This document shows positions 2,325 through 54,368 of a DNA stretch of 64,000 nucleotides, one piece after another. Numbering within the stretch: the stretch's first letter is position 1; each line of letters begins with the position of its first letter. Position numbers and translations under genes: made by a program. The notes under the pieces are model-generated. The model was not told the DNA's origin, made no database searches, and saw nothing but the letters and a program-made list of their open reading frames with translations. The DNA is from Clostridia bacterium (GTDB lineage: Bacteria; Bacillota; Clostridia; Oscillospirales; CAG-382), in the NCBI GenBank assembly GCA_017399965.1, contig JAFQAP010000016.1:53489-117488 (forward strand), given 5' to 3'.

Positions 2325-2355
2325 AAGAAGGAAGCTTTGTCTTCCTTCTTTTTTT
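2325..2355 (+). terminator. Rho-independent terminator
   Basis: AAGAAGGAAG-ctttgt-CTTCCTTCTT followed by TTTTT. Confidence 0.85.
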
Positions 2356-2374
2356 GTCGGGGTCCCCGAGGAGC
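2354..2374 (+). repeat. Partial copy of the 41-bp hairpin repeat (locus 1)
   Basis: TTGTCGGGGTCCCCGAG matches the first 17 nt of the consensus, then GAGC instead of AAGC, then diverges. Confidence 0.75.
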
Positions 2375-2893
2375 AGGTGGACTGAAAGGTGCGATGCGTG
2401 CCGCCTGAAAAACCGGAGTTTGCTTAAAGTGAACATTTTCGGAAGATTGCTGCGCAAATTTGGTCAAATTTGCGCCCAAAAAACGCAGAACGGATGTTTT
2501 GTGACCGTCGGCGAAACGACGAAATTGCGCTTTGGTTTTTGTGCATAGTGCACATTGAAGAAAGGCGGTAGAGAGACGTTTTTTTGCACAAAAACGCGAA
2601 AATCTGCTGCGGTAGACAGAATGTGAAATTTTGGTTTACAATTTATTTGCGTTGAATTTCACATGCACGCGCCGTATGTGAAACAGCAAGTCGAAAAAAG
2701 CTTGAAAATACGGGGAAACTACTGTATTTTTAACATTGAAATTTCAAGGATGTTACAAATTGTACCCGTTTTTACGCTTGGCGAGTTTTGTGCAGTTTAT
2801 TACATATATATTAATAGATTAAAAACAATATTTTTTTCGTTAGTGCAAATAGGTAAAAAGCGCACAAAAAACTACCTTCATATATATACACTA

Positions 2894-2922
2894 TTGACAA
2901 AACGGGGGAGTAGTGGTATTAT
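2894..2922 (+). promoter_or_regulatory. sigmaA-type promoter of the carbohydrate ABC cluster
   Basis: TTGACA-17 bp-TATTAT with extended -10 TG. Confidence 0.75.
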
Positions 2923-2992
2923 TCATAGTATCGAATATAATGCGTATAGATTTACGCATTTTTCTCAGTATTTATTTGGGAGGAACTTTTCA

Positions 2993-5900
2993 ATGACCAG
3001 GTTTAAGAACTGCTTTTCCAAACTGATGGCGGTCCTGCTTGTTTGCGTAATGCTGTTGGGCGATTATGCTCTTCTCGGCGCATATGCAAAGGTAGAATCT
3101 GTCGACGGTTCGGATTCTTTGGTTCGCACCTCGCTTAGTGAGATCGAAAAACTTCTTACTTCGGTTTCCTATTCGAGCTATCTTGAAATCTACAAGGATG
3201 TCAAGAATGCGGACAAAGAAATTGTTATCGATCTTTCTGCTTACAAGGAAGACAGCACTGCTACCGTTAACCTTAAAGAAGGTTACGAGGGCGCAGAAGG
3301 CACCGTCCTTTTAATGGGCGATGACGGTAAGATCGTATTTGATATCGACGTTCCCGAAACGGCAATGTATTCTGTTTACATAGAATACTGGACAGGCGAT
3401 ATCGAAGTACTTGATGCTTCCGGCGCTGTTGCCGCTGTCGGCAAGTCTGCGGATATCGAACGTATTATTTATTTTGACGAATCGGTTTCCTTTAAGGAAT
3501 CCCGTTCTCTTACATTCACTCGTGCGTGGAAGGATGTTTACACCAAGATCGAAGATGATAAGTCCAAGTCTTTCTTTGATTCCGTTAGTGATTTCTTCCT
3601 CGATTTCGTACGTGACCAGGCGAACATGTCTCCTGACAGCGGCCGTCTTTTCCCGTATGATACCAACGGCAACGAAGCAAAGCCTACCAAAGAGATCTAC
3701 GGTATGTGGACCGGCTCCTTTGCTTACGATACCAGCGGATATTACCCCAACCCTCTCAAATATTATCTCACCGAAGGTGCTCATACCCTTAATATTGAGA
3801 CAATAACCGAGCCTATGGCTATTAAGCAGATAGTTCTTAAGGCTGCTCCCGAAGCTCCGTCTTACGATGAATATATCGAAATGCACACTGCAGCGGGCGC
3901 AAAGGACTACACCGGCGAAACTCTTAAGATTCAGGCTGAGTATCCCGTTCTTACTTCCGACCGTACTCTTTACCAGATAAATGATCGTAAGTCCTCTTTT
4001 TCCGAGCCTCAGGACTCCACGCTCATCCGTTACAACAGTATCGGTTCCAATAAGTGGCAGTATGTCGGACAGTGGATAGAGTATACCATTGATGTTACGG
4101 AATCCGGATTCTATACCATAATTCCTCGTTCCAAGCAGGAAGAATTTATGGGTTCGTTTGTTTCCAGAATGATCCTCATAGATGGTGAGCTTCCTTTCGT
4201 AGAGGCTCAGAATCTCAGATTTAACTATTCTACTTCCTGGCGTACGGATGTACTCAATAACGGCGTTACCGATTTCAAATTCTATCTTAAAGAAGGTTTG
4301 CATACCATTCGTTTCCAGGTTGTTCTCGGTGATATGTCCGATATTCTCGGTCGTGTTTCCGATTCTCTTTCAAACCTTAACGAATACTACAGAAAAATAC
4401 TTATGATCACCGGTGCAGAACCCGATGATACCCGTGACTATAAGTTCCAGAAACTTATTCCCGACGTACTCAAGGGATTTAAGGAAGAAGCGGAAAATCT
4501 TAACCAGATCGCAGAAGAGATCATCCAGATCTCCGGTAGTGCCGGCGACCAGACCGGTACGCTTAAGAAAGTTGCTGTTATAGTTGAGCGTATGGGTAAA
4601 CACCCCTCCGAGATCGCAGGCTATATGAACACTCTTAAGGAATATACCGCTACTCTCGGTACTTGGCTTTCCGATAATACTTCTCAGCCTCTGCTTCTCG
4701 ATTACGTTGCATTCCAGGCTGTAGATGCAAATCCTCCCAAGGCGGAAGCAGGCTTCTTTGCTTCCATGTGGGCAGAAATACTTAAGTTCTTCGGTTCCTT
4801 CTCTGCGGATTACAACTCTATCGGTTCTCTTGTTGAAAAGGATTACTCCGATGAAGCACTTCAGGAGTGCGCTATTGAAGTTTGGACAGCTAACTCCCGT
4901 GAAGAAGCTACCATTATACGTAACCTGGTAGACGATTCCTTCAATGAACGTTACAGCATCCCCGTAACCGTTAAGCTGGTTGTAGGCGGCACCTTGCTTC
5001 CCGCAACTCTTGCAGGTACCGGTCCCGACGTTTATATGGGCGCTGCCCAGAGCGATCCTGTTAACTATGCTATCCGTTCTGCGGTTTACTCTCTTAACAG
5101 CGAAGCTCACGGCTATAACTTCAATGATCTTTCCAAGTGGGCAGATCACCCCGTATATGGCGAATTTATTGATGATATCGCCACATTTGACGAAGTAACA
5201 AAGCGTTTTGCTCCTGCTGCAATGGTTCCTTTCACTCTTTACGGTGAAGCTTACGCTATTGCAGATACGATGTCCTTCTCTATGATGTTCTACAGAAAAG
5301 ACCTTTTTGTTGAACTCGGACTTGAAGTTCCCAATACTTGGGAAGATTTCTACGATCTCATTTACACTATGCAGTCCAATTCTCTTGATATCGGTTTCCC
5401 TCAGGGCACCGGCGGCTCTTTCATTTGGGCATATCAGCAGAATGATGACCTTTTCGTAACCTATACCGACGAAGAATATGATGCATATCTTGATCAGCTT
5501 CTTACTCAGTACACCATGGACGAACTGGTTGAAATGGGCTGGGTATACACTGATGCAAACGGCAAGGTACGTCCCAAGATCGACGGTATGGAGATCAACC
5601 TGGGCAGTAACACCATGCTTGAAACCTTTAAGAAGGTTTGCGAACTGTTCACTGACTACGACTTCCCGTATTCTTACAGTATCGCAACTCGTTTCCGTCA
5701 GGGTATTATGCCTTTGGCAATAGCAGATTACACTTCTACATATAATACTATGGTAATCTTTGCTCCCGAAATTTCCGGTTTGTGGGAATTCACTCCTCTT
5801 CCCGGTACTTACGATCCCGAGACCGAAACGATCAATAACAGCACTATCGCAGCTGTTTCCTCTCTTATTATGATGAGAGGCGCAACTGAGAAAAACGCAC

Positions 5901-6298: not shown

Positions 6299-6318
6299 TT
6301 AAAGGAGGGAATTATCTA

Positions 6319-7257: not shown

Positions 7258-7259
7258 TT

Positions 7260-8177: not shown

Positions 8178-8194
8178 GAGAGGAGATTTATTAT

Positions 8195-10354: not shown

Positions 10355-10369
10355 GAAAGGAGTAGCAAT

Positions 10370-14291: not shown

Positions 14292-15404
14292 ATGAGTTTT
14301 TCTGAAAAATTAAAAGGTCTTTTTGCAAAAAAGCAAAAGCCCGAAAAAATTTTAACCGGTAACGCAAAGATAGACGTCGAAACTTCTTTGTGGGAGCGTT
14401 TTAAAGCTAAATACTTTAATATGTTCTTCGTAAAGAAACTCGGTTGGATTATCTTCAGATTGGTTCTTCTTATCGGTATTTCCTATGTAATTATCTATCC
14501 TTATTTCTCCAAAGTTACAACCTCTCTTATGGCGAGGGAAGACTTTGTTGATACCACCGTTCTTATGATTCCTCGTAACTGGACGTTGGATACTTACAAG
14601 GCTATTATCAACGATAACAAGTACTTTACCGCATTGTTCAACACCACAACTCTCTCTTTACTTTGCGGTGTTTCCCAGACCTTGATCTGCGCTATCGTAG
14701 GCTACGGCTTTGCGAAGTTCAAGTTTAAGTTTAAGGGTGCTTTGTTCCTGCTGGTAATCTTTACCATGGTAGTTCCTCACGAAACTATCCGTCAGGCGAT
14801 GATACTGCGATTCCGTTATATGGATCTAATCGGTATCATACCGCAGTTAAACGGTTGGATATTCAATATGTTTGACGGCGGTTCTATTTCCCCTGAAACT
14901 TATGAAAAGTTTACCGATTTTATCGCTATGATCCCCAACGCACTTAATACATACTGGCCTATGGCGATCCTTTCACTTACCGGTCTTGCATTTAAGAACG
15001 GTCTGTATATCTTCATGATGCGTCAGTACTACAGAGGCGTTCCCGACGAATTGGAGGAAGCTGCATACGTTGACGGCGCAGGCGTTATCAAAACGTTTGT
15101 ACGAATTATTCTGCCTATGTCAACCGCGATGTTGGTAACTATCTTTATGTTCTCCTTCTCGTGGCAGTGGACAGATACGTTCTACACAGATCTGTTTATG
15201 CCCGCTTCCGGCGGTAATATATTGCTTAACAATATCGTTTCGATACCTAAGTCTTTGGATACTGAGTTTGCGGGCCAATTGGCTTACGAAACTGCTATCA
15301 GAAATGGTTGCGGAATACTCATACTCATTCCTCTGCTTATTATGTATCTCTTCGGTCAGCGTACCCTTATCGAAGGCGTTGAGCGTTCCGGTATTACAGG
15401 CTAA
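14292..15404 (+). CDS. Carbohydrate ABC transporter permease
   Basis: EAA loop LEEAAYVDGAGVIKTFVRIILP; TM helices. Confidence 0.9.
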   Translation: MSFSEKLKGLFAKKQKPEKILTGNAKIDVETSLWERFKAKYFNMFFVKKLGWIIFRLVLLIGISYVIIYPYFSKVTTSLMAREDFVDTTVLMIPRNWTLDTYKAIINDNKYFTALFNTTTLSLLCGVSQTLICAIVGYGFAKFKFKFKGALFLLVIFTMVVPHETIRQAMILRFRYMDLIGIIPQLNGWIFNMFDGGSISPETYEKFTDFIAMIPNALNTYWPMAILSLTGLAFKNGLYIFMMRQYYRGVPDELEEAAYVDGAGVIKTFVRIILPMSTAMLVTIFMFSFSWQWTDTFYTDLFMPASGGNILLNNIVSIPKSLDTEFAGQLAYETAIRNGCGILILIPLLIMYLFGQRTLIEGVERSGITG

Positions 15405-15414
15405 TAAACCAATT

Positions 15415-15446
15415 AAAAAGAGTTGCTTTCAAAAAGCAACTCTTTT
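15415..15446 (+). terminator. Rho-independent terminator of the ABC cluster
   Basis: AAAAGAGTTGCT-ttcaaaa-AGCAACTCTTTT. Confidence 0.85.
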
Positions 15447-15447
15447 G

Positions 15448-15570
15448 TTATCGGGGTCCCCGAGAAGCCTTTGGGCTTCTTGGGGTGATTGTCGGGGTTC
15501 CCAAGAAGCCGTTAGACTTCTTGGGGTGATTGTCGGGGTTCCCGAGAAGCCGTTAGGCTTCTTGGGGTGA
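15448..15570 (+). repeat. Three tandem copies of the 41-bp hairpin repeat (locus 2)
   Basis: Units 15448-15488, 15489-15529, 15530-15570, head-to-tail, no spacers. Confidence 0.95.
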
Positions 15571-21365: not shown

Positions 21366-22898
21366 ATGGCAAATTACAACGCAGTGCAATTCGTTGAAGA
21401 AAATATGAAAACCATATTCGCATATGCTCTTGCACGTGTTTCAAATAAAGCGGATGCAGAGGATCTGGCAAGCGATATAATACTTGCAATTCTTCAAAGT
21501 AAGGATAAAATTAAAGATCCCACCGCTTTTTACGGTTTCGTATGGGGAATAGCCGCAAATACTTATAAAAGCTTTTTGCGCAAAAGACATAAAAATTCTT
21601 TTGCCGAGCTTGATGAAAGTATTCCCTATAACGACGGAGCTTTGGATGAGCTTTGTTCCAAAGAAGAACTGAATGTTTTGCGAAGGGAGCTAAGCTTACT
21701 TTCAAAGGAGTACCGTGAATGTACGGTTGCATATTATTTTGATGGACTTTCCTGCGCAGACACTGCCAAGAAACTGGGAATCTCTTTAGAAATGGTAAAG
21801 TACTACTTATTCAAAACCAGAAAAATTTTGAAAGAAGGTATAGGTATGGAAAGAGAATACGGTGAAAAAAGCTACAGACCCGCAAAGTTTGAGTTTGTAA
21901 CGATTTTTTCGGGAAGCTACAATGCGGAATACAGAAATCTGTTTAACAGAAAGCTGCCGGGAAATATTTTGCTCAGCACTTATTACACACCGATGACTAT
22001 ACGGGAGCTTTCCTTGGAGCTGGGTGTTGCGACGCCTTATCTTGAGGATGAAATAGGTATGCTTGAAAAGTACGGACTTTTGCAAAATCTCGGGGGCGGT
22101 AAATATCAGACAAATCTGGTTATATTTACCGAAGCGTTTACAAAAGAGTTTTACAAAACCGCCGAAGCTGCTTGTACAGATCGTGTCAAGAATATCTTAA
22201 GCGGAATCAAAGCAAAGCTTGGCGATATACGTAAGGTAGGATTTGTAGGATGCGGCTTGGATGATAACCGTCTTTTGTGGGCATTTTTGTGGATGTGTAT
22301 GCGCAAAGGACATCAGCTTTTTGAAGATAAGCATCCCGAATACAGAGAAAGAGAAAAGATCTACAACGGTGCTATGGGTACAAACTACGGTGTGGATTAT
22401 TACGATCTTCCCAATAACAGCAAGTACGATTGTCCTGCTTTTGCGGGATACGCAGGGCTGGACAATGATTTTGCTATGTCATTTGCGAATTTCGGAGCGC
22501 TTCCCGATAAGAATCACTGTAGTGTAAATAATGAAGAATATAAACAAAAGCTTTATGCAGCGTTGGCAGATAAAACAAAAGCTGAGTTTGCAGTTATGAC
22601 AAATGATGATCTGAATGCGGTAGAAACTATTATTTCCGATGAAATAACCGAAATGTCGAAGGTGTATGGCTATCTTACGGAAAAAGCGACGGAGATAATG
22701 CGCGTTCACGCACCCGAACACATACGAGATCAAGGCGAACATGTTGTGGGAAGCACTATTTTCTTCCGCACGGTCGGATTGATCGGTGCATGCGCCGCCG
22801 AATCAGGTATGGTTGGTGTTCCCACTCACGACGGAGCAGTTGCACTTTACGCATATAGAACCAAATACAGCGAAGAAAAATGCGGTGATGTTTGTTAA
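21366..22898 (+). CDS. ECF sigma factor with ~350-aa C-terminal extension (winged-helix-like + unknown domain)
   Basis: Region 2 ADAEDLASDI...WGIAANT; region 4 LSKEYREC...GLSCADTAKKLGISLEMVKYYLFKTRK; HTH-like MTIRELSLELGVATPYLEDEI. Confidence 0.85.
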   Translation: MANYNAVQFVEENMKTIFAYALARVSNKADAEDLASDIILAILQSKDKIKDPTAFYGFVWGIAANTYKSFLRKRHKNSFAELDESIPYNDGALDELCSKEELNVLRRELSLLSKEYRECTVAYYFDGLSCADTAKKLGISLEMVKYYLFKTRKILKEGIGMEREYGEKSYRPAKFEFVTIFSGSYNAEYRNLFNRKLPGNILLSTYYTPMTIRELSLELGVATPYLEDEIGMLEKYGLLQNLGGGKYQTNLVIFTEAFTKEFYKTAEAACTDRVKNILSGIKAKLGDIRKVGFVGCGLDDNRLLWAFLWMCMRKGHQLFEDKHPEYREREKIYNGAMGTNYGVDYYDLPNNSKYDCPAFAGYAGLDNDFAMSFANFGALPDKNHCSVNNEEYKQKLYAALADKTKAEFAVMTNDDLNAVETIISDEITEMSKVYGYLTEKATEIMRVHAPEHIRDQGEHVVGSTIFFRTVGLIGACAAESGMVGVPTHDGAVALYAYRTKYSEEKCGDVC

Positions 22899-22904: not shown

Positions 22905-22931
22905 AAGCCGCGGCAGTTAATGCCGCGGCTT
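22905..22931. terminator. Terminator hairpin between convergent genes
   Basis: AAGCCGCGGCA-gttaa-TGCCGCGGCTT; better U-tract on the minus strand. Confidence 0.75.
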
Positions 22932-22934: not shown

Positions 22935-22974
22935 TTGTCGGGGTCCCCGAGAAGCCGTAGGATTCTTGGGGTGA
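22935..22974 (+). repeat. Single 40-bp slightly degenerate copy of the hairpin repeat (locus 3)
   Basis: TTGTCGGGGTCCCCGAGAAGCCGTAGGATTCTTGGGGTGA. Confidence 0.92.
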
Positions 22975-24541: not shown

Positions 24542-24582
24542 TCACCCCAAGAAGCCTAACGGCTTCTCGGGGACCCCGATAA
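24542..24582 (-). repeat. Single copy of the 41-bp hairpin repeat (locus 4)
   Basis: Minus strand TTATCGGGGTCCCCGAGAAGCCGTTAGGCTTCTTGGGGTGA. Confidence 0.95.
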
Positions 24583-24611
24583 AAACAATGCCGCCTTTAA
24601 AAAGCGGCATT
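24581..24611 (-). terminator. Terminator downstream of recR
   Basis: Minus strand AATGCCGC-loop-GCGGCATT then GTTTTT. Confidence 0.8.
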
Positions 24612-24614
24612 AAA

Positions 24615-25202
24615 TTAAAACTCCGTTCTTCCTTCAATAGCTTTAAGCAGAGTAACGCTGTCAGCATATTCAAGAGTTGCGCCGACGGGCAGACCGTAGG
24701 CGAGACGTGTAACCTTTATACCAAGAGGCTTTATAAGACGGCTGAGATACATTGCGGTCGCCTCTCCTTCAACACTGGGATTTGTGGCAATTATTATCTC
24801 CTTCACGTTTTCATCGAGCCTCGCAAGAAGCTCTTTGATCTTTAATTTATCGGGACCGATACCGTCGATAGGGGAGATAACCCCGTGTAAAACGTGGTAG
24901 CTTCCGTTGAATTCGTGTAATTCCTCAACAGCTTCTGCGGCGCGGGTGTCCTCCACCACGCAGATAACGCTTTTATCGCGGGAAGGCGATTTACATACGG
25001 CGCACAAGCCGTCCTCGGAAAAGGTCATGCAGCAAGGACAGAGAGAAACCTGAGATTTGGCTTTTAATATAGCGTTTGCAAAATCTTCCGCTTCCGCTTC
25101 GGAAAGAGCGAGAATATGGTACGCAAGACGAATTGCAGATTTTCTGCCTATTCCGGGCAGGGAGGCGAACTTGCTTATAAGATTTTCAAGACTTGGTGTC
25201 AT
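24615..25202 (-). CDS. recR: Recombination protein RecR
   Basis: LPGIGRKSAIRLAY, C4 zinc finger, YHVLHG.ISP.DGIGP, IIATNPSVEGEATA. Confidence 0.97.
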   Translation of the reverse strand: MTPSLENLISKFASLPGIGRKSAIRLAYHILALSEAEAEDFANAILKAKSQVSLCPCCMTFSEDGLCAVCKSPSRDKSVICVVEDTRAAEAVEELHEFNGSYHVLHGVISPIDGIGPDKLKIKELLARLDENVKEIIIATNPSVEGEATAMYLSRLIKPLGIKVTRLAYGLPVGATLEYADSVTLLKAIEGRTEF

Positions 25203-27167: not shown

Positions 27168-27444
27168 GTACGGTCATACAGCAAAAGTCGAACGCCTGCT
27201 ACACCCGAAAACGAAGCTTTCCTCTTCCGGACAGGCACTCCCGCAACACATCCGCTCTTCCGCTTAATGCTGCTTGGTTCCCCATCTGACATGGTTCACG
27301 GACGCAAATTGTGCAGGACCCATCCTTCAACAGATTCTTGCTCCGCCCGGCGGCACAGCAAACGGCCTCATAAAGCCATTCACCCCTGCTGTAGCGGATC
27401 TCAGGTTCAGGGCACCGCTAACTCCCCGGTTAGTATGACCGTAC
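27168..27444 (-). ncRNA. ffs: Large bacterial SRP RNA with Alu domain
   Basis: Minus strand GGGGAGTTAGCGGTGCCCTG...CCGCTACAGCAGGG Alu; domain IV GAACCATGTCAG...GGAA...AGCAGCATTAAG; 12-bp complementary ends; upstream of dnaX. Confidence 0.92.
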
Positions 27445-33050: not shown

Positions 33051-33083
33051 AAACCACTCCTTGAAGCACTTAATAAACGAAAG
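33051..33083 (+). promoter_or_regulatory. Putative ECF-type promoter motif upstream of extended ECF 2
   Basis: AAACC-12 bp-ACTTAATAAACGAAAG; matches the motif at 21294. Confidence 0.5.
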
Positions 33084-33096
33084 GACGGTGAGAACA

Positions 33097-34644
33097 ATGG
33101 AAAACGGTATTATTGCCGAGTATACCGAAAGAGTGTTTGCTTATGCATTAAAGCGTACCTTTAATTACGATGAGGCGGAAGAGCTTTCTCAAGAAATACT
33201 CGTAACTGCAATAAAGGAACTTCACAAGCTTAAAAATGAAGAAAGCTTTGAACCTTGGCTTTGGGGTATAGCAGGCAATGTAACAAAAGCCTTCAGCCGT
33301 AAAATGGGAAAACAGCGCGCGATGTTTTCTTATGACGTTCCCGAAGATATCGTCTACGACGACGGCACCGACGATAAGAGTGAACAAGAACTTTCTGTAT
33401 TAAGAGCTCAAATCGCAATGCTTTCAAAAGCATACCGTGATATCATTGTTTTTCATTATTACGATAACCTTTCGGTGAAGCAAATCTCTGAACGCCTGTC
33501 TATTCCGGAGGGCACGGTAACGTGGCGCCTTTCAGAAGCGCGGCGAAAGCTTACAAAGGAGTGTAACGAAATGAACGAAACAGCTCTCAGACCTAAAACA
33601 ATGCATATTAATATTCACGGTAACGGAAATTATAACGGTATCACCGTTCCGTTCCCCACGGTTTATATTGATGATGCTTTGTCCCAGAATATACTTTGTT
33701 ATTGCTACGAAGAAGCTCATACTATCGAGGAATTATCCAAATACTGCGGTGTTCCCGCATATTATATCGAGGATCGTGTAGATAATCTTGTTAAACGAAA
33801 TGCGGTCATAGAGCAAACAAAGGGGAAGTACCGCACGGATTTTGTCGTCTGGTCGGATAAATACGGCATTTATCTTGAAGAAAATGCGGAAAAATGCCTG
33901 CTTCCTATGATGGATAAGCTTTTTGATGCTTTAAAAATGATAGCAAAAGAAGCGAAAAATATCGATTTTTACAGAGGCGGCAAAAGTGAAGATGATCTGT
34001 TTTATCTTTACGGCGTACAAGCGTTTAATTATATGGGTCCCGCTTATTGTAAAATTCCCCATGTAGAGATAAAGCCCAAATACGACGGCTACCGCTGGGC
34101 GTATATTGGCAGTGTCGAAACCGGCGCCCATCCCAGGATAGGACTTTCAGTAAACCGCTGCGGTAATTACGGAACAAACGGCGGATATTCCCACGACGTA
34201 TACTGCCATTTCGGAGGCATCCGCTACCGTCCTTTTATGACCGATAATATGATAAACGCCTGTGTTGATATAGTTCTTCACGGCAAGAGTGATGATACGG
34301 AAAGCGTGGCTGATGCTATTCAAAAGGGATATATCAAGCGTAACGAAAACGGTTCTCTGTTTGTTACTGTTCCGCTTTTCAAAAAGGAACAAAGGGACGA
34401 ATTTTTCAGTCTTACCGAGAAATATCTCTTCCCCTTGGGCGAGGAATACGCGCAGTGTGTGGATTCACTTCTTGCAGGCTACAAAAAGCTGTTCCCCAAG
34501 CATTTGAAGGACGAAGCAGACTTTTTTACCCGTCATTTGTTCTTTTCGTTGTATGCGGTTTTAATTAACTGTTGGCAACGCAGGGGACAGATTAAAATGC
34601 CTTCCGAAGATTTCAATTGCGACGTACTGCGGAATTTCGATTAG
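33097..34644 (+). CDS. ECF sigma factor with ~355-aa C-terminal extension (same architecture as 21366-22898)
   Basis: DEAEELSQEI, FEPWLWGIAGN, LSVKQISERLSIPEGTVTWRLSEARR; HTH-like HTIEELSKYCGVPAYYIEDRV; start set at ATG 33097. Confidence 0.85.
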   Translation: MENGIIAEYTERVFAYALKRTFNYDEAEELSQEILVTAIKELHKLKNEESFEPWLWGIAGNVTKAFSRKMGKQRAMFSYDVPEDIVYDDGTDDKSEQELSVLRAQIAMLSKAYRDIIVFHYYDNLSVKQISERLSIPEGTVTWRLSEARRKLTKECNEMNETALRPKTMHINIHGNGNYNGITVPFPTVYIDDALSQNILCYCYEEAHTIEELSKYCGVPAYYIEDRVDNLVKRNAVIEQTKGKYRTDFVVWSDKYGIYLEENAEKCLLPMMDKLFDALKMIAKEAKNIDFYRGGKSEDDLFYLYGVQAFNYMGPAYCKIPHVEIKPKYDGYRWAYIGSVETGAHPRIGLSVNRCGNYGTNGGYSHDVYCHFGGIRYRPFMTDNMINACVDIVLHGKSDDTESVADAIQKGYIKRNENGSLFVTVPLFKKEQRDEFFSLTEKYLFPLGEEYAQCVDSLLAGYKKLFPKHLKDEADFFTRHLFFSLYAVLINCWQRRGQIKMPSEDFNCDVLRNFD

Positions 34645-34651
34645 AAATCAA

Positions 34652-34701
34652 TAAAAAACAAGGACACAATGCCCGTTTTTGACGGATATTGTGTCCTTTT
34701 T
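34652..34701. terminator. Bidirectional terminator between convergent genes
   Basis: AAGGACACAAT...ATTGTGTCCTT flanked by A- and T-tracts. Confidence 0.8.
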
Positions 34702-34702
34702 G

Positions 34703-34784
34703 TTGTCGGGGTCCCCGAGAAGCCGCAAGGCTTCTTGGGGTGATTGTCGGGGTCCCCGAGAAGCCGCAAGGCTTCTTGGGGTGA
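34703..34784 (+). repeat. Two identical tandem copies of the 41-bp hairpin repeat (locus 5)
   Basis: Units 34703-34743 and 34744-34784; loop GCAA. Confidence 0.95.
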
Positions 34785-34809
34785 TTTGTCGCTTTGTTTT
34801 ACTTAAAGC

Positions 34810-35808
34810 TTATTTCATTGCCTCTTCAACTGCAACTGCACAAGCAACGGTAGCACCAACCATGGGGTTGTTACCCATACCGATAAGTCCCATCATCTCT
34901 ACGTGAGCGGGAACGGAGGAGGAGCCTGCGAACTGTGCGTCGGAGTGCATACGGCCCATAGTATCGGTCATACCGTAGGAAGCGGGACCTGCAGCCATAT
35001 TATCGGGGTGGAGAGTACGTCCTGTACCGCCGCCGGAAGCAACGGAGAAGTAGCTTACGCCGTTTTCGGTACACCACTTCTTATAGGTACCTGCAACGGG
35101 ATGCTGGAATCTGGTGGGGTTGGTGGAGTTACCGGTAATGGAAACGCCAACGTTCTCCAGCTTCATTATAGCAACGCCTTCGGGAACGTTATCTGCACCG
35201 TAGCACTTAACGTTTGCACGGGGACCGTTGGAATAAGGAGTTTCGGAAACAACGGTTACGGTTTCGGTGTAAGGATCAAACTCGGTCTGAACATAGGTAA
35301 AGCCGTTGATACGGGAGATGATGAAGGCAGCGTCCTTGCCGAGACCGTTGAGGATAACACGGAGAGGCTGAGTTCTAACCTTGTTTGCATTGAGAGCGAT
35401 CTTTATAGCGCCTTCAGCTGCAGCAAAGGATTCATGTCCTGCCAGGAAGCAGAAGCATTCGGTTTCTTCGGAAAGAAGCATTTTGCCCAGGTTACCGTGG
35501 CCGAGACCAACCTTACGGTTTTCAGCAACAGAACCGGGGATACAGAAGGACTGAAGTCCGATACCGATAGCGGCAGCAGCATCTGCAGCTTTAACGCAAC
35601 CGGTCTTAACTGCGATAGCACAGCCAACTGTGTATGCCCATACTGCATTTTCAAAGCAGATAGGCTGGGTCTCTCTTACGATCTTATCGCAATCGATACC
35701 CTTTGCAAGAGTGATCTCTTTGCATTCTTCGATGGAGTTGATACCATATTCTTTAAGCACAGCGAGGATCTTGTCCGCGCGGCGTTCATAGCTTTCAAAA
35801 AGTGCCAT
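34810..35808 (-). CDS. GGGtGRT family protein
   Basis: Signature ASGGGTGRTLHPDN; MALFESYERR N-terminus. Confidence 0.92.
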   Translation of the reverse strand: MALFESYERRADKILAVLKEYGINSIEECKEITLAKGIDCDKIVRETQPICFENAVWAYTVGCAIAVKTGCVKAADAAAAIGIGLQSFCIPGSVAENRKVGLGHGNLGKMLLSEETECFCFLAGHESFAAAEGAIKIALNANKVRTQPLRVILNGLGKDAAFIISRINGFTYVQTEFDPYTETVTVVSETPYSNGPRANVKCYGADNVPEGVAIMKLENVGVSITGNSTNPTRFQHPVAGTYKKWCTENGVSYFSVASGGGTGRTLHPDNMAAGPASYGMTDTMGRMHSDAQFAGSSSVPAHVEMMGLIGMGNNPMVGATVACAVAVEEAMK

Positions 35809-35822
35809 ATTTCGTTACCTCC

Positions 35823-36518
35823 TTACTGTTTGCGGGGATCGATGTAGGTCTTGCCGTCATCGAATCTGCCGTAGTGGCCGAGAGCCTTGTTGTAAGCGGT
35901 GGTGGGATCGTCGCCCTTCTTGATGAAATCGGTCATCTTGCCGAGAGAAACGAACTCATAGCCGATAACCTGATTATTTTCGTCAAGAGCCATACGGGTA
36001 ACATAGCCTTCTGCCATTTCAAGGTAACGAACACCCTTTGCCTTGGTACCGTACATTGTACCAACCTGAGAGCGTGCGCCCTTGCCGAGGTCTTCAAGAC
36101 CGGCGCCGATGGAAAGACCGTCATCAGAGAAAGCGGACTGGGAACGTCCGTAAACGATCTGGAGGAAGAGTTCGCGCATTGCGGTATTGATAGCGTCGCA
36201 AACCAAGTCGGTGTTGAGAGCTTCGAGAATGGTCTTGCCGGGAAGGATCTCTGCTGCCATAGCTGCGGAGTGAGTCATACCGGAGCAACCGATAGTCTCT
36301 ACGAGAGCTTCTTCGATAATACCGTTTTTAACGTTAAGGGAAAGTTTGCAAGCGCCCTGCTGAGGTGCGCACCAGCCTACACCGTGTGTAAAAGCGGAAA
36401 TGTCGCTTACTTCTTTAGCCTTTACCCATTTTCCTTCCTCGGGAATGGGAGCGGGACCGTGGTTGGGACCCTTGGCTACGACACACATATGCTCGACTTC
36501 TTTTGAATAGTTGATCAT
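35823..36518 (-). CDS. NifU/IscU-like protein of the GGGtGRT-associated type
   Basis: HGVGWCAPQQGACKL, ETIGCSGMTHS, LVCDAIN; start set at MINYS (36518). Confidence 0.8.
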   Translation of the reverse strand: MINYSKEVEHMCVVAKGPNHGPAPIPEEGKWVKAKEVSDISAFTHGVGWCAPQQGACKLSLNVKNGIIEEALVETIGCSGMTHSAAMAAEILPGKTILEALNTDLVCDAINTAMRELFLQIVYGRSQSAFSDDGLSIGAGLEDLGKGARSQVGTMYGTKAKGVRYLEMAEGYVTRMALDENNQVIGYEFVSLGKMTDFIKKGDDPTTAYNKALGHYGRFDDGKTYIDPRKQ

Positions 36519-36543
36519 ACTTTTAGTCCTTTCTGGTTTATGT

Positions 36544-37119
36544 TTATTTTTTAATAATTTCTGCGGTGTAAGAACCAAACGCATTTGCGGCGTTGGATTC
36601 GTCGGTATCAATATGCATTGCGTCTGCAAAAGAGGGGCTTACTCTGATTACAACGTCATCAAAAATAAGAGCGCGGGGAGTATCAAGCTTTGCCAAAACT
36701 ATCTCTTTATCGGAAACGCCGAACTTTTCTGCAGTTTCGGGAGTGAGATGTACGTGGCGCTGTGCTGCGATAGCTCCTTCGGTAAGCTCAACTTCTCCTG
36801 CGGGACCGACAAGCTTTACGGGTGAGCTTCCCTTAAGGTCGCCGGATTCTCTCACAGGAACGCTTATGCCGAGTGTTCTTGCATCGGTAAGAGAAACTTC
36901 AACCTGAGAAGCTTTGCGTGCGGGACCGAGAACGGAAACGTTTTTAATAGTGTTTTTGGGACCTACTACGTCAACACGTTCTTCGCAAGCAAACTGACCG
37001 GGCTGGGACAGCATTTTTTTAACGGTAAGCTCGTGTCCTACGCCGAAAAGGGTTTGTATGTCGGCTTCGGAAAGGTGCACGTGGCGTGCGGAGGTCTCCA
37101 CAAGTACTGTGTTTGCCAT
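36544..37119 (-). CDS. pduL: Phosphate propanoyl/acetyltransferase PduL
   Basis: SARHVHLS, LSQPGQFA, AAQRHVH, MHIDTDESNA. Confidence 0.93.
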   Translation of the reverse strand: MANTVLVETSARHVHLSEADIQTLFGVGHELTVKKMLSQPGQFACEERVDVVGPKNTIKNVSVLGPARKASQVEVSLTDARTLGISVPVRESGDLKGSSPVKLVGPAGEVELTEGAIAAQRHVHLTPETAEKFGVSDKEIVLAKLDTPRALIFDDVVIRVSPSFADAMHIDTDESNAANAFGSYTAEIIKK

Positions 37120-43703: not shown

Positions 43704-43737
43704 TTAAACTTAACTTTATCGGAAAGGAGTGTTCACG

Positions 43738-46162: not shown

Positions 46163-46178
46163 GAAACGGAAGATAAAA

Positions 46179-47528: not shown

Positions 47529-48810
47529 AAGCGTTTCGGCGTTTCTTGAACGTATAGAAAACGGGCGAATTTTAGTGGCGCTTTCCGGCGGAGGAGATTC
47601 CGTGTGTCTGCTTTCCGTTCTTAAAGGACTGGGGGCGGATATATGCGCTTTCCATCTTAACCACGGTATAAGAGGAGAAGAAGCGGACAGAGATCAGGAC
47701 TTTTGCCGCAGGCTATGTGAAAAACTTTCTGTTCCGTTTTATACAAAAAAGGTCGATATTCCCGCACTTTCCAAAGAGTATGGGAAAGGACTTGAAGAAA
47801 CAGCCCGTGTTGTGAGGTATCAGCTTTTAGAGGATGCCGCAAACGAAACAAAATCCCGTTATATTGCTACTGCTCATAACGGTGATGATAATACAGAGAC
47901 AGTTATATTTAACCTTGTTCGGGGCTGTGGTGCCGATGGTCTTTGCGGTATTCCCGCAATAAGAGGCAGAATAATAAGACCGCTTCTTAACAGCACCCGT
48001 GCAGAGATAGACATATATCTGAAAGAACTTCAATTACAGTACGTAACAGACAGCACCAATTCCGACGAAAGCTATACCCGCAACAAAATAAGACATTCCG
48101 TAATGCCGGTATTGCGCAGTATAAATCCTTCTGTCGTTACCGCCGTTTCCCGCTTGTGCGAATCGGTTAAAAACGATAAAAGCTTTTTTGAAGAAGCTCT
48201 TTCGGATAGCGAAGATAAATTACCGGCTGACCTGCCGTTATCTTTGTTAACAAGGCAGATATCAAAGCGTTACGAAGCAAAAACGGGTCTTTCTTTGGAT
48301 TTTTCACATATTAATGAAATAGCCGAAGCTGTAAAAAAACGTATTTGCACCACCTTCGATCTTCCGGGAAAAGTGTGTGTTTACGTTTATTACGGCGGCT
48401 ATTCTTTTGAAAAACGTATGGTCTCTGCCCAATACCGCATTCCCGTAACAGCGGGAATTACCGAAATTCCGCAAAAAAACACAAAGATTTTTTACGGAAA
48501 CGAAAATGTTTACAAATTGTCAACATCAGTGGCGGTAGATTGTGGTAAAATAGTTGGCAGTTTGTACGCACGTCCAAGAATGGAAGGGGACCGAATAAAA
48601 GTGTTCGGCGTTTCCAAAAGCGTGCGAAAAGAATTTATAAATAAAAAAATACCGCTTTGCGTCCGCAACGATATTCCCGTTATTTGCGATGACGAGGGAA
48701 TAGTTTACGTCCCATATATCGGTGCAGACGACAGAGTGTTTTCAAATTCAGGGCGGCATATTTTGGGGCTGCTCTGTTCCGAAACGGAGAAGAATAATGA
48801 AAAAAAGTAA
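47515..48810 (+). CDS. tilS: tRNA(Ile)-lysidine synthetase
   Basis: [36 protein letters not shown]; start set at ATG 47515. Confidence 0.93.
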
Positions 48811-50791
48811 CACCGGTTGGGGATTATTTTGGCTTGTTGCTATAGTAGCCATAATAGTTGCCGCTTTTGTAATGGGCGGAACCGAATCAAGCAAACCGAT
48901 TAACTACGCGAAGGTAAGCGAGTATTTCCACGATGAGCAAGTAGTGGAATTTACCGTTTCAAAGACAAATAAGCTTACTATGAAGCTTAAAAACGGTGAG
49001 ACCGTTTCTCATAATCTTCGCGATCTGTCTATATTCTACTATGATTTCAGCGAACTTATAGAAGAACAGCATTCCTCGGGAATTATAAAAACCTTTGAGT
49101 ATGAGGCTCCCACGCCAACACCGGCATGGCTTAAGTTTATGCCTATAATACTCGTGGTCATCGTTATGATCGTGCTTTGGTGGCTCTTCTTCGCCAGAAT
49201 GAATTCAAGTAATTCCTCCGGCGGCGGTATGGGCGGTATCGGCAGAATGAACTCTTTCTCCAAATCCCGTGCAAAGCTCGGTTCCGATGAATCCAAAAAG
49301 GTTTTGTTCACCGATGTTGCAGGTGCAGACGAGGAAAAAGAAGAACTGCGTGAAGTTGTTGAATTTTTGAAAAACCCCAAAAAGTTCAGTTCTTTGGGTG
49401 CAAGAATTCCCAAGGGCGTGCTTTTGGTAGGCGCACCCGGTACAGGTAAGACCTTGTTGGCAAAAGCAGTTGCAGGTGAATCCTCCGTGCCCTTCTATTC
49501 TTTGTCAGGTTCCGATTTCGTTGAGCTTTACGTTGGTGTCGGCGCGTCCCGTGTAAGAGATCTGTTTGAGACCGCAAAAAAAACCGCACCTTGTATCATT
49601 TTCATCGATGAGATCGATGCTGTAGGCAGACACAGAGGCGCAGGCTGGGGCGGCGGACACGATGAGCGTGAGCAGACGCTTAACCAGTTACTTGTTGAAA
49701 TGGACGGTTTCGGCGTTAACGATGGTGTTATTGTTATTGCCGCTACCAACAGACCCGATATTTTGGACCCTGCGTTGCTTCGTCCCGGTCGTTTTGACAG
49801 ACAGGTAACGGTATCATATCCCGATATCAAGGGCCGTACGGAAATACTTGCCGTACACGCAAGAAACAAACCTCTTTCCGATGATGTTGATCTTGAAACC
49901 ATAGCTAAGTCCACTCCCGGATTTACCGGTGCGGATCTTTCCAACCTGCTTAATGAAGCCGCTCTCCTTGCTGCACGTAAGGGTGAAGCCGTTATCTCTA
50001 TGGAAGATATCGAAGAGGCTTCCATCAAGGTTATTGTCGGTACTCAAAAGCGTTCCAGAATCATTAAGCCCGAAGAAAAGCGCAAGACCGCTATCCACGA
50101 GGCCGGCCACGCTATTATTTCCCGTGTGCTTAATCCCGATGATTTTGTACGTCAGATATCCGTTATTCCCAGCGGCAGCGCTTTGGGTTACACTCTTTCT
50201 TTGCCCAAGGAAGACAGATGGAGTGTTTACCGCGGTGAGCTTCAGAATAAGATATCCGAGCTTTTGGGCGGACGTGTTGCGGAGGAGCTTTGCTGTGACG
50301 ATATTTCCGGCGGTGCTTCCAACGATATTCAGCGTGCTACCGAAATTGCCCGTAAAATGGTTACAACTTACGGTATGAGCGATAAGCTCGGTCCCATCGT
50401 ATTCGGCACCGGACACGATGAGGTGTTCTTAGGTAAGGATTATTCCACTCAGCGCAATTACTCCGAAGAGATCGCATCCGAAATAGATGCTGAGATCCAC
50501 CGCATAATTACGGAAGCGCACGATAAGGCTAAAAAGATACTTGCCGAAAATATGGATAAGCTCAATCTTATTGTGGAATATCTTGTGGCTTACGAAATTA
50601 TGGACGAAGAACAGTTCAACGCCGTTTTTGAAGAAAACTGCAGTTTGGAAATTCTGGAGAAGATGCGGGATGAAAAGACCGAGCGTATCCGTGTTGCAAA
50701 CGAAAAACGCCGCGAAGAATTGAGAGCAAACGAGGAAAATAAAGAGGATCCCGAGGATTCAGATAAAAACGAAGACGTAATTCCTCACTAA
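48797..50791 (+). CDS. ftsH: ATP-dependent zinc metalloprotease FtsH
   Basis: [29 protein letters not shown]; start set at ATG 48797. Confidence 0.97.
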
Positions 50792-50804
50792 TAAATAAAA
50801 GTTA

Positions 50805-50839
50805 AGTGCGTATCTTAAACGGATACGCACTGTCTTTTT
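50805..50839 (+). terminator. Rho-independent terminator after ftsH
   Basis: AGTGCGTATC-ttaaacg-GATACGCACT then GTCTTTTT. Confidence 0.82.
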
Positions 50840-50919
50840 GTCGGGGTCCCCAAGAAGCCGCATGGCTTCTTGGGGTGATTGTCGGGGTCCCCAAGAAGCC
50901 GCATGGCTTCTTGGGGTGA
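50838..50919 (+). repeat. Two identical tandem copies of the 41-bp hairpin repeat (locus 6)
   Basis: Units 50838-50878 and 50879-50919; loop GCAT; fully paired 12-bp stem. Confidence 0.95.
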
Positions 50920-50980
50920 TTATTGAGGATAAATTTCGCAAAAACGGTAAACAATACCATATAAGAAAAGAGGTATTGTT

Positions 50981-52045: not shown

Positions 52046-52844
52046 TACTACTGTTATATGCGGATACATTTCGGTGTCTGCCGCCATACGCGGCGGCAAA
52101 CGCCGTATAGACCGCATTATACTTGACACAGAGCGATATAACAAAGTTATGCGCAGTAAGTACCACTATAACGAAAAAAAGCAATACGCCGCTTTAAAAG
52201 CAAGCGGCATACAGCTTGATTTCGTTTCACCCGATGAGTTTTTGACTCTTACTTCGGGAGATACTGCAGGCGGAATTGCGGCAGAGGTAGGAGAGCGCAG
52301 ATTTTGCCGTCCTGAAAAACTGTTGTGCAATAAAAAAGGCTATATCCTGGTTATTGACGGCATAGAAGACCCATACAACTTCGGCTACGTTTTGCGCACC
52401 GTATATGCTGCCGGAGCAGACGGTGTTATTTTGCCGGAACGGAATTTCTTTGTATCCTCGGATATTGTAATTCGTTCTTCCGCAGGGGCTTCCGAATATC
52501 TTGAGGTAGCTGTTACCGACGATCTGGGTGCTGCTGTTTCCTTGGCTTCCGCCGCAGGATATACAGTTGCCGCCACTGCAAAGAGTGAAAACTCCGTAAG
52601 CGTTTACAACACAGTCCTTTCAAGGCCTCTTTGTCTTATATTGGGCGGGGAAAAGCGGGGGATCTCCAAAAATGTTTTGGAAAAAGCGGATATTACTTTA
52701 AGTATACCGTACCCCAGAAACTGTCAGTATTCCTTGTCTGCCTCTGCGGCGGCAAATATTATCGCGTTTCAGATAGGCTCAATCATCGCTCCCCCAGACG
52801 ATTCCGGGAACCTTGCCGATGATGACTGTCTGGGCAATACATAG
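52038..52844 (+). CDS. TrmH/SpoU family RNA methyltransferase
   Basis: DGIEDPYNFGYVLRT, SSAGASE, LILGGEKRGIS, SLSASAAA; start set at ATG 52038. Confidence 0.88.
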   Translation: MNDTTVICGYISVSAAIRGGKRRIDRIILDTERYNKVMRSKYHYNEKKQYAALKASGIQLDFVSPDEFLTLTSGDTAGGIAAEVGERRFCRPEKLLCNKKGYILVIDGIEDPYNFGYVLRTVYAAGADGVILPERNFFVSSDIVIRSSAGASEYLEVAVTDDLGAAVSLASAAGYTVAATAKSENSVSVYNTVLSRPLCLILGGEKRGISKNVLEKADITLSIPYPRNCQYSLSASAAANIIAFQIGSIIAPPDDSGNLADDDCLGNT

Positions 52845-53396
52845 TTCGGTTTTTATTTCTCTGGTTTCCGTGAATAACGGACCGGATATTTCCACACAAG
52901 CAATAAATTCGATATAAAGCTCGTATTTTGTCTGGTTAACACCGCCGGACACAAGCGAGCTTTTTGTTTTTGAAACCACGTTTCCGACAGGAGTCGCTCT
53001 TATGGGAATTTCCGGACCCAAGCCGGAGAATGCGTAGCTGTTTAATGCATTTCCCAAAGGTATACCGAAATCCAAATATTTGTATTCCGTAAGCTTTTCT
53101 ATAATATCAAGGGTGAGTCTGCTTTTTATAAGATTAACGTATTCTGTGTTTATATCAATAAGTGCTATATTTCCGTTTTGATCTTTTTCTATTATCAACA
53201 CGTCGTCTTTGTTGTAATCCTCGTAGGTGTGTAATATGCGGTTGTTTATCAGCCTGCTTATCTCTCTTACGATCACCTGGTCGCAATAACGGGACGCTAC
53301 TTCCGGAAAGTGCTTCTCTATACGTATGGTAATAAGAATTATGCTCGCCGCTGTAAACAGGCAAATAATAACAAGAACTATCTTTATCTTTTTCAT
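52779..53396 (-). CDS. yunB: Sporulation protein YunB
   Basis: N-terminal TM; IPLGNALNSYAFSGLGPEIPI..PVG.V, GVNQTKY, IIIGKVP-type C-terminus. Confidence 0.85.
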   Translation of the reverse strand: MKKIKIVLVIICLFTAASIILITIRIEKHFPEVASRYCDQVIVREISRLINNRILHTYEDYNKDDVLIIEKDQNGNIALIDINTEYVNLIKSRLTLDIIEKLTEYKYLDFGIPLGNALNSYAFSGLGPEIPIRATPVGNVVSKTKSSLVSGGVNQTKYELYIEFIACVEISGPLFTETREIKTELCIAQTVIIGKVPGIVWGSDD

Positions 53397-53460
53397 AAAT
53401 ATCTCTCCCCGGAAAATAATATTAACATTATTACATTTTTATTAATGATTTGTCTTATCG

Positions 53461-53490
53461 GTATTCCAAGCTCTCTTTCTGGCAAAAATA
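53461..53490 (+). promoter_or_regulatory. sigmaF/sigmaG-type promoter of sigG
   Basis: GTATT-15 bp-GGCAAAAATA matches GYATA-15-GGnnAnAHTR. Confidence 0.65.
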
Positions 53491-53512
53491 GATTTGAGCA
53501 AAAACGGAGGCA

Positions 53513-54289
53513 ATGAATATGTATAATAAAGTTGAAATATGCGGTGTTAACACATCAAAGCTGCCCATGCTTTCGGACGCTAAAAAGGCAGAATTGTTAA
53601 AACGTGCCCACGAGGGTGATTCCTACGCCAGAGATGAACTGATAAACGGAAATTTAAGATTGGTTTTAAGCGTTATCCAATCTTTTGCAGGCAGAGGAGA
53701 GAATCCCGATGATCTGTTTCAGGTAGGATGTATCGGACTAATAAAAGCAGTTGATAATTTCGACACCACTTTGGACGTTAAATTTTCTACCTACGCAGTT
53801 CCTATGATACTGGGGGAAATAAGAAGATATCTTCGGGATAACAACACCATTCGTGTATCCCGTTCCGTGCGCGATATGGCGTATCGCGCTTTGCAGGCGA
53901 AGGAAGCGCTTTCAAACAAGCTTAACCGCGATCCCACTATCGAAGAGATAGCAAAAGAAACGGGCTTTTCGAGAGAAGATATTGTAAATGCGTTGGAAGC
54001 CATTGTCGAACCGGTTTCGTTATACGAACCCATATATTCTGACGGCGGGGATTCTTTATACGTTATGGACCAGATCAAGGACACTAAAAATACGGACGAA
54101 AGCTGGCTTACGGGAATAGCTCTGACAGAAGCTATAGCTACGCTTAATGAGAGGGAAAAAAGAATACTGCTCTTGCGTTTCTACCGCGGAAAAACTCAAA
54201 CTGAAGTTTCCGCAGAAATAGGCATTTCCCAAGCACAGGTCAGCCGCCTTGAAAAAGGAGCATTGGAAAAAATAAGAAAACAATTATAA
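53513..54289 (+). CDS. sigG: Sporulation sigma factor SigG
   Basis: NKVEICGVNTSKLP N-terminus; GNLRLVLSVIQ, KFSTYAVPMILGEIRRYLRDN. Confidence 0.95.
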   Translation: MNMYNKVEICGVNTSKLPMLSDAKKAELLKRAHEGDSYARDELINGNLRLVLSVIQSFAGRGENPDDLFQVGCIGLIKAVDNFDTTLDVKFSTYAVPMILGEIRRYLRDNNTIRVSRSVRDMAYRALQAKEALSNKLNRDPTIEEIAKETGFSREDIVNALEAIVEPVSLYEPIYSDGGDSLYVMDQIKDTKNTDESWLTGIALTEAIATLNEREKRILLLRFYRGKTQTEVSAEIGISQAQVSRLEKGALEKIRKQL

Positions 54290-54327
54290 ATTTGCCCCAA
54301 AAAGTTATCGGATTTTCAGTAACCAAA

Positions 54328-54368
54328 TCACCCCAAGAAGCCTTACGGCTTCTCGGGGACCCCGACAA
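54328..54368 (-). repeat. Single copy of the 41-bp hairpin repeat (locus 7)
   Basis: Minus strand TTGTCGGGGTCCCCGAGAAGCCGTAAGGCTTCTTGGGGTGA. Confidence 0.95.

Follow-up and report, generated by a model that had tools for sequence, protein, structure and literature searches.

The window examined here is a 64-kb stretch of a Clostridia bacterium genome (C10:53489-117488 of the source assembly, G000; 2.09 Mb, 45% G+C, 35 contigs), and our subject is a 41-nucleotide (nt) hairpin repeat that recurs in it directly behind predicted transcription terminators. Allowing at most two mismatches, the core GGGGTCCCCRAGAAGCC was matched 11 times in the window against a chance expectation of 0.02. A stricter pattern gave 10 complete units and one 5' fragment spread over seven loci, in agreement with an earlier examination of the bare letters (the sequence-only reading), which had counted 11 copies of the family at seven loci. 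The units and the hairpins that host them were located as follows.

2325-2350, plus strand: terminator-like hairpin (AAGAAGGAAGC-TTTG-TCTTCCTTCTT, then a T run), host of the partial copy, behind the open reading frame (ORF) 1348-2310
2354-2375, plus strand: 5' unit fragment (TTGTCGGGGTCCCCGAGGAGCA); the 3' half is absent and no GGGGTGA end lies downstream
15417-15445, plus strand: terminator hairpin behind ORF 14292-15404; folding energy (dG) -14.5 kcal/mol; also flagged by the consensus scan
15448-15488, 15489-15529 and 15530-15570, plus strand: three head-to-tail 41-nt units (array 15448-15570)
22905-22931, plus strand: hairpin behind the sigma-70-family gene 21366-22898; weak plus-strand T-tract; kept in relatives
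22935-22974, plus strand: single unit of 40 nt with a 3-nt loop, GTA
24542-24582, minus strand: single unit, loop GTTA, behind the recR terminator
24586-24612, minus strand: terminator hairpin behind recR (24615-25202, minus strand)
34662-34696, plus strand: terminator hairpin behind ORF 33061-34644; dG -19.4 kcal/mol
34703-34743 and 34744-34784, plus strand: two identical units, loop GCAA; the last is itself terminator-like in the consensus scan
50805-50831, plus strand: terminator hairpin behind ORF 48722-50791; conserved in six species
50838-50878 and 50879-50919, plus strand: two identical units with the AAGAAGCC stem and loop GCAT
54328-54368, minus strand: single unit, loop GTAA
54371-54397, minus strand: terminator hairpin behind ORF 54416-55411 (minus strand); dG -14.7 kcal/mol; conserved in four species

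At all seven loci an unrelated hairpin was found just 5' of the unit, in the same polarity and downstream of a same-strand ORF, with 2-6 nt between the end of the host hairpin and the TTRTC of the unit; this is the arrangement that the sequence-only reading had described. That reading had also held that seven of 11 terminator-like hairpins were occupied and that the T-tract at 22935 was weak. Within the window, our own predictor called approximately 11-12 distinct sites that were terminator-like and lay behind an ORF of the same strand, with units at seven of them, and the T-tract of the host hairpin 22905-22931 was likewise found to be poor. The name RecR rests on Pfam matches at the syntenic locus L160. 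It was noted that units 2 and 3 of array 15448-15570 have the GGGGTTCCC variant in common, which points to local duplication. A 100-amino-acid (aa) ORF at 15268-15570 spans this three-unit array and is almost certainly spurious, an example of how such hairpin repeats can seed false gene calls.

The 41-nt unit can be written as TT-RTC-GGGGT-[CCCC-RAGAAGCC-G(Y/N)A-GGCTTCTT-GGGG]-TGA-TT. Over 62 units, 43 positions were conserved (TT-RTC-GGGGTCCCC-RAGAAGCC-G(Y/N)A-GGCTTCTT-GGGGTGA-TT), and variation was confined to position 3, position 15 (G/A, by which a G:T pair becomes A:T) and the two middle loop bases. The single stem is subterminal and comprises 12 bp (CCCC plus 8). The termini are asymmetric, with RTCGGGGT at the 5' end and TGA at the 3' end, and there are no terminal inverted repeats, the inverted repeat being internal. 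When folded as single-stranded DNA, the top strand reached -13.0 kcal/mol and the bottom strand -10.4 kcal/mol. Across the wider superfamily described below, G:T pairs outnumbered A:C pairs by 116 to 6, a ratio that is partly one of ascertainment, as the detector favored G:T. The loops are of the G..A type, either GNNA or GNA (GCAA, GTTA and GTAA, with GCA in other subfamilies), and many are not GNRA. GNA and GNNA loops closed by a C-G pair are classic hyper-stable DNA mini-hairpins, and the loop type therefore favors a DNA structure over an RNA structure.

We then searched the genome with a structural pattern consisting of a box, two paired arms, and a GGGGTG tail. This superfamily, GGGG(T)CCCC-N8-loop-N8'-GGGGTG (GGGGTCCCC...GGGGTG), comprised 152 units with 32 distinct 8-bp stems, in which 96% of positions were paired compared to 76% with shuffled partners. 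The subfamily of interest, with the stems GAGAAGCC, AAGAAGCC, AAGAAGTC and close variants, contained 77 units, grouped into 59-61 arrays (48 of one unit, 10 of two and 3 of three, all direct and head-to-tail, with one TT common to adjoining units). Of 16 pairs of neighboring units, 12 had the same loop, where 18% was expected (p = 1e-6), which indicates that arrays grow mainly by copying a neighbor unit. Variants of approximately 90 nt (GGGGTCCCC GAGAAAG ... CTTTCTT GGGGTGA) with an extra loop insert of approximately 55 nt were also encountered behind terminators (G000 C9:12848, C14:8917, C12:24122, C28:17942 and C28:18035), and these may be nested or ancestral forms. Beside some arrays there were solo TTRTC-GGGGTGA motifs or bare GGGGTGA remnants (L027 5041-5055; several G000 sites, for example upstream of C14:8958 and of C29:22431), as expected if the hairpin had been deleted between its two flanking GGGGT direct repeats.

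The association with terminators was assessed genome-wide, using our own crude predictions of both genes and terminators. A terminator-like site was defined as a hairpin of -7 kcal/mol or lower followed by a T-rich tract, on either strand, and 2734 such sites were found in the genome. In the subfamily, 47 of 59 arrays started 0-7 nt past an unrelated terminator-like hairpin in the same polarity, compared to a null of 1.6% of intergenic oriented positions (binomial p = 1e-73), with the insertion point approximately 2-9 nt past the host hairpin (mode 4-5). The arrays also lay 3' of a same-strand ORF in 47 of 59 cases, the median distance from stop codon to box being 53 nt. Only 10.7% of intergenic runs of at least four T are preceded by a hairpin, so the T run alone is not the target. 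Most of the 12 exceptions still had a hairpin that was imperfect or lacked a T-tract, or had '...GGGGTGA', left over from an older unit, between terminator and unit. The association was limited to this subfamily: arrays with GAAAACGC stems were behind terminators in 1 of 15 cases and those with GCGAATGC stems in 0 of 8, and units with these two stems occupy other repeat contexts.

The same pattern was encountered in other species. Among 35 hand-picked and aligned upstream regions from at least eight species, 31 had a stable hairpin (-13 kcal/mol or lower) ending within approximately 6 nt of the unit start, and the upstream sequences had nothing in common except a T-rich tail. The enrichment near terminators that the sequence-only reading had proposed on the basis of the window is therefore present both across the genome and beyond it. 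A second copy of the host hairpin downstream of the array was found in none of the 47 arrays. An exact unit with the AAGAAGCC stem was also noted between two transfer RNA (tRNA) genes in a deep-subsurface Acetothermia metagenome-assembled genome (MAG; MTNI01000224.1, L073 890-970), where it adjoins an inverted unit with a different stem; this copy represents either a cross-phylum transfer or mis-binning.

Orthologous sites were compared across the genus and metagenome assemblies, with strain differences taken from ENA scaffolds. At window 50838, where G000 has two units, the related genomes G004 and G009 are colinear save for a gap of exactly 82 nt (2 x 41), and the terminator is conserved in the six species, with G002, G003 and G007 empty. 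At window 54328, with one unit in G000, G002 is empty, G009 carries two units of other subfamilies and G004 a single degenerate unit; judged from these alignments, this predicted terminator is one that has been hit repeatedly. At window 22935, also with one unit in G000, the terminator is present in a relative (76% protein identity), where its T-tract is normal and no unit follows, and conspecific strains (98% identity) have three units. The site at window 24542 (one unit, loop GTTA) is empty in two relatives and holds three units with loop GCCA in a conspecific strain. The reverse case was found at C9:14731, which is empty in G000 and holds exactly 41 nt in G003 and G004 (...TTTTTC-TT-[ATC...GGGGTGA-TT]-GAAG compared to ...TTTTTC-TT-GAAG). 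An empty relative was thus found for all five orthologous sites examined, and the unit number differed at both of the sites compared between conspecific strains. Within the genus, a species had between 0 and 43 exact-pattern copies, with almost none outside the genus among 41 relatives.

The empty sites, the exact 41- and 82-nt differences and the variation in unit number indicate an element that is either mobile or turning over very rapidly, and bear out the empty-site polymorphism anticipated by the sequence-only reading. From these comparisons it is very probable that the unit family is mobile and targeted to terminator tails. The alignments show that the unit enters in one fixed orientation, its entry point being a TT of the T-rich tail, a few nt 3' of a stable hairpin, which in practice is a predicted intrinsic terminator. 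They also show the upstream gene left undisturbed and the host hairpin not duplicated by the unit.

A different account would be that selection keeps the units where they are because they serve the host: they could back up the terminator or insulate, shield read-through RNA as 3' stem-loops, or bind a protein, for example of the gyrase type, where transcription units end. The unit can resemble an intrinsic terminator, having a 12-bp stem followed by TGATTK; one unit, with a TGATTT tail, passed the consensus scan and was its top-ranked terminator-like site. Conservation is strong in the stem and box but not in the loop, which drifts, and at an old insertion common to three species (C30:5873) the unit is identical at 41 of 41 positions where the flanks have diverged. 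In addition, E. coli repetitive extragenic palindromic (REP) sequences have been reported to act as terminators and stabilizers in 3' untranslated regions (bioRxiv 10.64898/2026.03.23.713779). However, a host function fits poorly with the fast turnover at the five sites with empty relatives and the differing unit numbers among conspecific strains. Compensation for weak terminators and a bias toward convergent genes were both considered, and neither was seen: occupied terminators were not weaker than unoccupied ones (mean dG -16.9 compared to -15.2 kcal/mol), and there was no excess of occupied terminators at convergent gene pairs. Little RNA should arrive at units lying behind strong terminators, and selection alone leaves unexplained why the start is fixed at 0-7 nt from the hairpin. 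We therefore consider host function an unlikely main explanation.

The bases flanking the unit raise another alternative. A TT was found on either side of the unit in 97-98% of copies and only once at empty sites, as would be expected of a MITE (miniature inverted-repeat transposable element) moved by cut-and-paste with a DDE transposase and a 2-bp TT target duplication. However, the termini RTCGGGGT and GGGGTGA do not form an inverted repeat with each other, that of the unit lying inside it, and orientation relative to the hairpin is essentially invariant. Furthermore, head-to-tail units are separated by a single TT, and no multi-copy transposase gene was found in the assembly, where the paralogue families were response regulators, a tyrosine recombinase and conjugation-type proteins. 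A DDE-type element is therefore improbable. Asymmetric ends, one strand-biased subterminal hairpin, a fixed orientation and no clear duplication instead follow the logic of REP and IS200/IS605-type elements.

We accordingly favor, at a probability of roughly 0.6, the reading that the unit is a gene-less, non-autonomous, REP-like mobile DNA element aimed at terminator tails that would move as single-stranded DNA with an enzyme acting in trans. The enrichment and the empty sites support the sequence-only reading in so far as it had proposed a non-autonomous, REP-like element targeting terminator tails. IS200/IS605 elements such as IS608 and ISDra2 are single-strand 'peel and paste' elements, and the unit would move in a similar manner; a single-strand, HUH-type mechanism is a tentative proposal, at somewhat less than even odds. 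The unit's own 3' end is a hairpin followed by 5 nt (TGATT), and the target, a hairpin followed by approximately 5 nt ending in TT, may mimic it. This suggestion draws on the insertion point 2-9 nt past the host hairpin, the unit's own TGATT tail, and the terminator-like score of the TGATTT-tailed unit; such mimicry would account for the head-to-tail arrays as well as for the targeting of terminators. In a more speculative and rather unlikely version, the unit would act as a minimal single-strand transposon with one hairpin, which reads the shape of a stable hairpin with a short T-tail, and so of any intrinsic terminator, as a likeness of its 3' end and in effect borrows the host terminator as its second hairpin. 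Its enzyme would be a RAYT-like protein, domesticated and acting far from its own gene, or some other protein. The exposed strand could be the non-template strand at an RNA polymerase pausing in the T-tract; this would account for a polarity that follows transcription and not replication. If true, a single-hairpin system that reads terminators would provide gene ends with a natural 'safe-harbour' integrase.

The position of the junction in the T-tract, where transcripts end, and the polarity tracking transcription rather than replication would also suit a route through RNA or one with no dedicated transposase. Copies could arise by template switching or gene conversion between sites with a hairpin and T tail, or by transcription-coupled or reverse-transcriptase joining where transcripts end. 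Group IIC introns are retroelements able to read terminator motifs (PMC4424553), and the CGTC-tagged REPs likewise lack a dedicated transposase (PMC3733652). Against this, the 41-nt unit has neither a ribozyme nor an ORF, and units also occur off terminators, for example between the tRNA genes of the Acetothermia MAG. Precise modules of 41 nt with conserved and asymmetric ends also look enzyme-defined. We regard such a route as having little likelihood compared to an enzyme-driven, REP-like element.

For that element, the only candidate enzyme seen is the product of the single RAYT-like Y1/HUH gene of the genome. The Pfam Y1_Tnp model matched one weak place in the genome (PF01797, 17.6 bits; cut-off 23), a single-copy, intact ORF of 187 aa wedged between two genes (C8:11141-11704). 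This ORF matched NCBIfam NF047646 (REP_Tyr_transpos) at E = 9e-17 and 61 bits (cut-off 80), and E. coli TnpA-REP (PDB 4er8) at E = 0.009. By eye, the HUH motif was recognized as HIH and the tyrosine motif as ...EYIANNP, and its homologues carry the JGI name RayT. Co-occurrence of RAYT-like genes and the repeat exceeded chance across the 41 relatives (7/9 compared to 7/32; Fisher exact test, p = 0.004, with phylogeny ignored). The part of the sequence-only reading that invokes HUH enzymes is no more than tentative: a RAYT-like gene exists elsewhere in the genome, but the repeat does not flank it and follows it only loosely among relatives, and a sister genome has the repeat without the gene.

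Several results weigh against the link to the RAYT-like gene. The candidate enzyme scores below the curated cut-offs of both NCBIfam and Pfam, no repeat was found in its flanks, and the nearest unit is 6.6 kb away. The repeat was present without any RAYT-like match in G004 (95% complete) and G009, and seven genomes had RAYT-like genes without the terminator-tail subfamily. Against a classic lagging-strand route for single-stranded DNA, no replication-strand bias was seen (leading/lagging 17/12 for occupied and 264/216 for unoccupied terminators, using a weak GC-skew proxy). The unit boundary is ambiguous by 2 nt, as judged by alignment, and the flanking TT may reflect either insertion after a TT without duplication or a 2-bp duplication. 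Neither an excision circle (...GGGGTGATT joined to RTCGGGG...) nor a de novo insertion was observed directly. A within-species joint that skips 41 nt at 50837/50879, seen in three runs of Logan contigs, was not counted, as it may represent a k=31 collapse of identical tandem units.

The lack of flanking repeats around RAYT-like genes was not restricted to this genome. The commonest 16-mer in the 300-nt flanks of the RAYT-like gene had 2 occurrences in the genome, compared to 31-48 for 16-mers of the unit, and no flanking repeats were found in G000, G003 or four more distant homologues, which abut an upstream gene and have ordinary terminators behind them. Bertels et al. (PMC5581495) report strong flanking by abundant repeats for RAYT groups 2 and 3 only, and according to Di Nocera et al. 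(PMC3733652) the CGTC/TGTC-tagged REPs have no dedicated transposase. It is therefore not out of the ordinary for the enzyme to be unlinked or missing.

Superfamily units were encountered near RAYT-like paralogues in G005 and G024 only. In G005:C7 (L110 1300-2150), direct copies of a repeat approximately 100 nt long lie on both sides of a paralogue with 35% identity to the gene of G000; the repeat consists of GAGAAAT/GAGGAAT heptamer words, then an ATTTTTG...CAAAAAT hairpin, then CTTCCATACC..., with a superfamily unit (GGGGTCCCC GCAAAACC TT GGTTTTGT GGGGTG) at the 3' end of the arrangement. This was the sole REPtron-like arrangement seen. In G024:C12 (L105 2140-2240), two superfamily units lie 150-200 nt upstream of a RAYT-like gene 49% identical to that of G000; their inner stems are swapped (GCAAC/GTTGT and GTTGC/GCAAT) and the loop orientation is the same. 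Within the RAYT-like ORF of G000 there is a GC-rich palindrome, GTAGGGCAGGGGCTTGCCCCTGCC (C8:11290-11330), and nearly the same outer stem, with a superfamily unit in its loop, was found at the intergenic positions C20:472, C34:38053, C34:124388 and C34:128175. In several gut Clostridia (L165-L173), the RAYT-like gene starts at, or a few bases from, the stop of an unrelated upstream gene (CitMHS, RHH_1, GH38 or aldo-keto reductase), and from this placement it looks as though the gene had itself landed at gene ends.

We compared the unit to the known systems that it resembles. Rfam, in both its gathering and its E-value mode, contained no relevant match, nor did IMG/VR, PLSDB or INPHARED, and the box sequence retrieved no relevant paper in literature full text; the sequence-only reading had left it undecided whether the family was already catalogued, and the Rfam, phage, plasmid and viral collections gave no such entry. 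Similar to the REP/REPIN-RAYT systems of E. coli and Pseudomonas (PMC3337134, PMC5581495), the unit is a short, multi-copy extragenic hairpin found mostly 3' of genes, forms tandem clusters with copy numbers varying by species and strain, and occurs in a genome with a single-copy RAYT-like gene with HUH and Tyr motifs (a sub-cut-off match). However, it lacks the GTAG tag at the 5' foot, having TTRTC-GGGGT as its 5' flank, and its units are single or head-to-tail and not inverted doublets (REPINs). Its RAYT-like gene is not repeat-flanked, its host is one of the Clostridia, and it inserts at a strictly set point, within the T-tail that follows a foreign terminator hairpin.

The CGTC/TGTC-tagged repeats (Di Nocera, De Gregorio & Rocco 2013, PMC3733652) resemble the unit in having a TGTC-type tag at one end (in 66% of the units here it reads TTGTC), a short unpaired tail at the far end, a location mostly downstream of coding regions and no flanking transposase. 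In those repeats the tag abuts the stem, whereas 5 nt (GGGGT) intervene in the unit; their stems are 8-9 bp from A-T pairs with a loop of 4-5 nt, compared to 12 bp from CCCC here; and they have a CCA tail and head-to-head dimers in place of a TGA tail and head-to-tail arrays. Firmicutes are absent from the phyla listed for them (PMC3733652). Miniature derivatives of IS200/IS605 elements offer further likenesses in that their ends are asymmetric, in a subterminal hairpin whose fold is better on one of the strands, and in oriented insertion 3' of a short sequence (a fixed target of 4-5 nt in those elements, TT here) with no clear duplication. The unit differs in having one hairpin instead of two and a target that seems to need a neighboring host hairpin, in the absence of replication-strand bias, and in that no canonical TnpA/TnpB and no PF01797 match above the cut-off were found.

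Two further classes of element select hairpins as targets. Group IIC introns are described (PMC4424553, citing Robart et al. 2007) as inserting after intrinsic-terminator motifs of any sequence, in terminator polarity. The unit likewise inserts behind terminators regardless of sequence and in their polarity, but these introns are six-domain ribozyme retroelements with a reverse transcriptase, whereas the unit is a 41-nt DNA hairpin with no Rfam intron match. IS1272 and IS1182-type insertion sequences (ISs; PMC5678879) similarly target an inverted-repeat structure in place of a specific sequence. Here, by contrast, the host hairpin remains intact, being neither replaced nor duplicated (0/47 second copies). 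A DDE-type MITE would have terminal inverted repeats, which the unit lacks, and the TT duplication is ambiguous. The unit works like the GTAG REPs/REPINs, the CGTC REPs and the IS200/IS605 miniatures, yet fails defining features of each. What is new is that insertion into terminator tails has been quantified, is specific to one subfamily and fixed in polarity, and is accompanied by clean empty sites.

Mobile elements known to pick intrinsic terminators as such are very few, and the examples found were group IIC introns and some hairpin-targeting ISs. The unit is far smaller, has no ribozyme, and lies 3' of the terminator hairpin, which it neither interrupts nor duplicates. This makes it a clean system for studying how DNA shape, rather than sequence, can steer integration, and the enzyme, if found, could possibly serve as a tool to insert DNA just behind genes while leaving those genes undisturbed. 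The family also bears on the role of single-copy RAYT-like genes in Firmicutes. In practical terms, the repeat likely breaks or collapses short-read assemblies, and its arrays provide variable-number markers that differ even among conspecific gut strains.

The metatranscriptome runs containing the region consisted of short contigs, mostly of a conserved neighboring gene from other organisms, and gave no usable 3'-end signal. It was noted that contig depth was very high over window 34500-36500, which contains the minus-strand genes 34810-36629, in all metagenome and metatranscriptome runs. These genes are conserved, highly expressed and common to many organisms, so the depth there is uninformative for this genome. 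Elsewhere in the window, a bacterial large signal recognition particle RNA (RF01854, 164 bits) was identified on the minus strand at 27174-27438.

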